Below: the continuation of a report on this DNA, generated by a model with database tools
Source of the DNA: Candidatus Komeilibacteria bacterium S5_K13
GTDB lineage: Bacteria; Patescibacteriota; Patescibacteriia; UBA1558; S5-K13
NCBI GenBank assembly: GCA_019248485.1
Contig: JAEHGL010000002.1
Location: forward strand, 1,324-65,323
Length of the DNA: 64,000 nucleotides
Direction: 5' to 3'
The DNA's letters: not shown here

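Follow-up and report, generated by a model that had tools for sequence, protein, structure and literature searches.

The secondary structure of the RNA element, a ~485-nt GC-rich island on the minus strand between uvrD and the gene for a 533-aa membrane protein, is under selection. Because MAFFT misplaces the variable hairpins, base pairs were tallied on hand-curated strands of the three homologues (the window copy, L003 and L005); these curated helices contain 12 compensatory pairs and show 98.4% pairing, compared with 37–46% in slid controls, a covariation among relatives that bears out the structured RNA of the original prediction. The closing helix H1 joins 12286–12280 to 11866–11860 and is weak in L005, and helices H2 and H9 bury the Shine–Dalgarno (SD) sequences of two short minus-strand reading frames, ORF1 (12269..12135; 42–44 codons) and ORF2 (11994..11956; 12–13 codons). 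The partner of GGGAGGAA is UUCUUCCU, located downstream by 18–19 nt (window and L003) or 15 nt (L005), and the SD-like GGGAGGAA forms one strand of H2. The invariant CGACCUACA was also considered as a long-range partner of the 3' tail, an idea dropped since only the L003 fold shows this pairing.

Both ORFs start at an AUG that follows GGAGG or GGAG, their start codons, stop codons and genome-typical ribosome-binding sites (RBSs) are conserved, and all indels within them are multiples of three nucleotides, as opposed to the 1-, 2-, 4- and 5-nt indels that are common elsewhere in the RNA. These features lend indirect support to the translation of ORF1 and ORF2 and argue against a purely non-coding RNA acting in trans, that is, a protein- or ligand-binding scaffold or a ribozyme with the pseudoknot core as its functional centre and with ORFs that arose by accident in GC-rich, purine-rich helices. 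We lean against this second reading while holding it quite possible, in that the whole body of structural evidence applies to it, the SD-like sequence is fully accounted for by its place in H2, conservation is at the level of the nucleotides and stays undiminished for ~35 nt beyond the ORF1 stop, the substitution pattern of ORF1 is not protein-like, and chance ORFs of 30–93 codons are also present on the opposite strand of the island. Nor were peptide homologues found: the ORF1 peptide had no match in a word-indexed search or in Pfam, PHROGs, NCBIfam and PADLOC, and its sole match in an exhaustive search of 1.84 billion representatives was the L003 copy. A RiPP precursor serving the radical-SAM/SPASM enzyme encoded nearby was also considered and dropped; L003 has the RNA and no rSAM gene within 5 kb.

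Under the preferred reading of a bifunctional structured RNA whose folding gates translation, a ribosome on ORF1 would have to open the long arm together with the 5' strands of the almost invariant H-type pseudoknot, inside which it would then terminate. A stronger version appears unlikely, namely that the element founds a new class of large pseudoknotted RNAs with translation coupled to the fold, that it switches between an RNA-active state when folded and a peptide-producing state when translated, and that it is thereby a riboregulatory switch or ribozyme-like module, self-contained and peculiar to one Patescibacteria lineage.

The original prediction offered, as an alternative, a terminator-controlled leader of the downstream gene (ATG at 11753). 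Such a cis-acting 5' leader, with terminator read-through controlled by the fold or by short-ORF translation, would resemble attenuators, the Salmonella mgtA/mgtCBR leaders and riboswitch-terminator leaders in its position upstream of a membrane-protein gene, its intrinsic terminator and its short ORFs, one of them proline-rich; SD-led short ORFs, proline-rich ones among them, are known from such leaders. In every carrier the element is also co-oriented with the membrane-protein gene and immediately upstream of it; 58 nt separate the end of the terminator from the ATG, and no strong minus-strand promoter was detected in that interval. However, the association with the gene does not extend beyond the clade. 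The upstream regions of orthologues in Kuenenbacteria, Falkowbacteria and other Patescibacteria (62–340 nt, 26–28% GC) contain no such RNA, the element is missing from the orthologue loci L006–L008, L011–L013, L139, L140 and L141, and the sister lineage, L141, retains the gene behind a 37-nt spacer. The best duplexes that the terminator 5' arm can form with upstream sequence reach −8 to −9 kcal/mol, weak beside the ~−17 kcal/mol of the terminator, and lie at non-homologous positions across the three lineages; no antiterminator mutually exclusive with the terminator was found, and Rfam returned no known aptamer. A leader function is thus distinctly unlikely.

Very improbable is the view that there is no minus-strand RNA gene at all and that the island is either the long 5' UTR of a plus-strand uvrD transcript or what is left of decaying foreign DNA. 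The plus strand does fold well (z = −5.4), relatives have different small genes at this site ahead of uvrD, and in one NCBI assembly the annotated UvrD is extended N-terminally over the island (P0245, 726 aa). Against this, only the minus strand is compatible with the 15 G-U pairs and with every one-sided change, that strand also carries both the promoter and the terminator, the invariant blocks and compensatory changes speak of ongoing selection instead of decay, and UvrD homology begins at the ATG at 12391.

No known RNA family accounts for the element. The island had no match at Rfam gathering scores in a scan of the whole window, and a search of the window, L003 and L005 copies with the Rfam 15 covariance models under permissive filters (E ≤ 10) yielded only noise, namely snoRNA, miRNA and CRISPR-DR models at E 0.1–10, none common to the three homologues; SRP RNA, 6S RNA, OLE, ROOL, GOLLD, raiA, HEARO, T-box and other riboswitches and ribozymes were all unmatched. 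At either threshold there was likewise no match to RNase P RNA models (RNaseP_bact_a/b and related; three homologues) or to tmRNA, and ARAGORN detected nothing but two tRNAs across the window and no tmRNA in L003 or L005. The original prediction had set aside RNase P RNA, tmRNA and SRP RNA, and these scans agree. Two ribozyme or riboswitch resemblances were rejected: a CUGAYGAG adjoins S3, a helix of pseudoknot A, but the strand order fits no hammerhead permutation, GAAA is lacking and Rfam is negative; the UGGUAC of a T-box is present but misplaced, with no model match.

Within a single clade, three diverged lineages carry the RNA and a fourth has lost it. Among GTDB species representatives, the core 18-mer CTCTGAGGTAGGGTANTGA was found only in the L003 species and in one chance match in Asticcacaulis. 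Two purine/pyrimidine-degenerate patterns, for pseudoknots A and B, had no match in JGI metagenomes; in IMG/VR the core pattern had none and the 15-mer TTCTTCCTGGTACAA gave chance matches only (loci L014–L133). A blastn search against phages and plasmids returned nothing meaningful, and nhmmer --max, run against every retrieved Patescibacteria locus as well as the whole window, recovered the known copies only. GC-rich islands in the relatives' loci proved to be tRNAs.

Stable housekeeping RNAs typically share a length of ~400–480 nt, pseudoknots, a 5'–3' closing stem, a consensus promoter and a GC content that is high for an AT-rich genome, and the element is like RNase P RNA and tmRNA in all of these, including multiple pseudoknots, and in a GAGGAAA motif that resembles RNase P CR-I. 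That it is a highly divergent RNase P RNA, tmRNA, SRP RNA or 6S RNA is nevertheless barely credible, given the negative models, the absence of a tRNA-like domain, the SD and AUG that open its ORFs (a tmRNA tag ORF has neither), the lack of a P4 helix in which CR-I (GAGGAAAGUCC...) pairs over a long range with CR-V (ACAGAA..CGGCUUA), with GGGAGGAA paired locally, no CR-V-like sequence in the RNA and the sole candidate 3' partner, CCAAUGUAACCUC, not conserved in L003 or L005, and its absence from the syntenic site in L141, where it is dispensable, and from the compared loci of the next relatives, L134 and L137.

Large, pseudoknot-rich bacterial RNAs without family assignment are rare, and one would hardly expect ~600 bp of non-protein DNA under a perfect promoter to lie idle in the tiny genomes of Patescibacteria. 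Selection for RNA helices and, it appears, for intact reading frames bears on the same nucleotides, and the L141 lineage provides a natural knock-out for comparison. If active, the RNA would establish a new class of structured RNA and offer a compact model of the interplay between translation and RNA folding; a mere small-peptide mRNA would warn that real micro-genes can lie hidden in the GC-rich 'ncRNA islands' of AT-rich genomes. The very narrow distribution limits the general importance of the element.

Among known systems, OLE, ROOL, GOLLD, raiA and HEARO are similarly GC-rich, ornate and pseudoknotted RNAs with their own transcription units and with functions not deducible from sequence, and OLE is likewise encoded beside a membrane-protein gene. 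These families span many genera or phyla and, to our knowledge, contain no conserved translatable ORFs, whereas the element is confined to its one clade and matches none of their covariance models. Type I toxin mRNAs of the hok/sok kind are also self-contained accessory modules of ~400–500 nt, patchy among close relatives, with a very stable fold, two small ORFs, a 5'–3' closing interaction and an SD paired with its own coding region, features paralleled here by H1, H2 and H9. Unlike hok/sok, neither candidate peptide is a hydrophobic transmembrane toxin: the ORF1 product is a basic, proline-rich peptide in which no stretch reaches the length of a membrane span, that of ORF2 has only 12–13 residues, and peptide sequence is poorly constrained. 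An antisense or divergent antitoxin promoter was not detected in a consensus scan, which misses weak promoters and found no plus-strand promoter inside 11850–12300 and a single plus-strand site at 11756–11784. Finally, the dual-function small RNAs RNAIII/hld, SgrS/SgrT and SR1/SR1P are, like the element, stand-alone transcripts with their own promoter and terminator, whose secondary structure is conserved and within which lies a short ORF led by an RBS. The likeness is one of kind: Rfam is negative, homology is absent in both sequence and structure, and translation and any target are putative here. Most RNAs of that class are about half as long, and the element differs from them in its two H-type pseudoknots, its two candidate ORFs and its restriction to one narrow clade.

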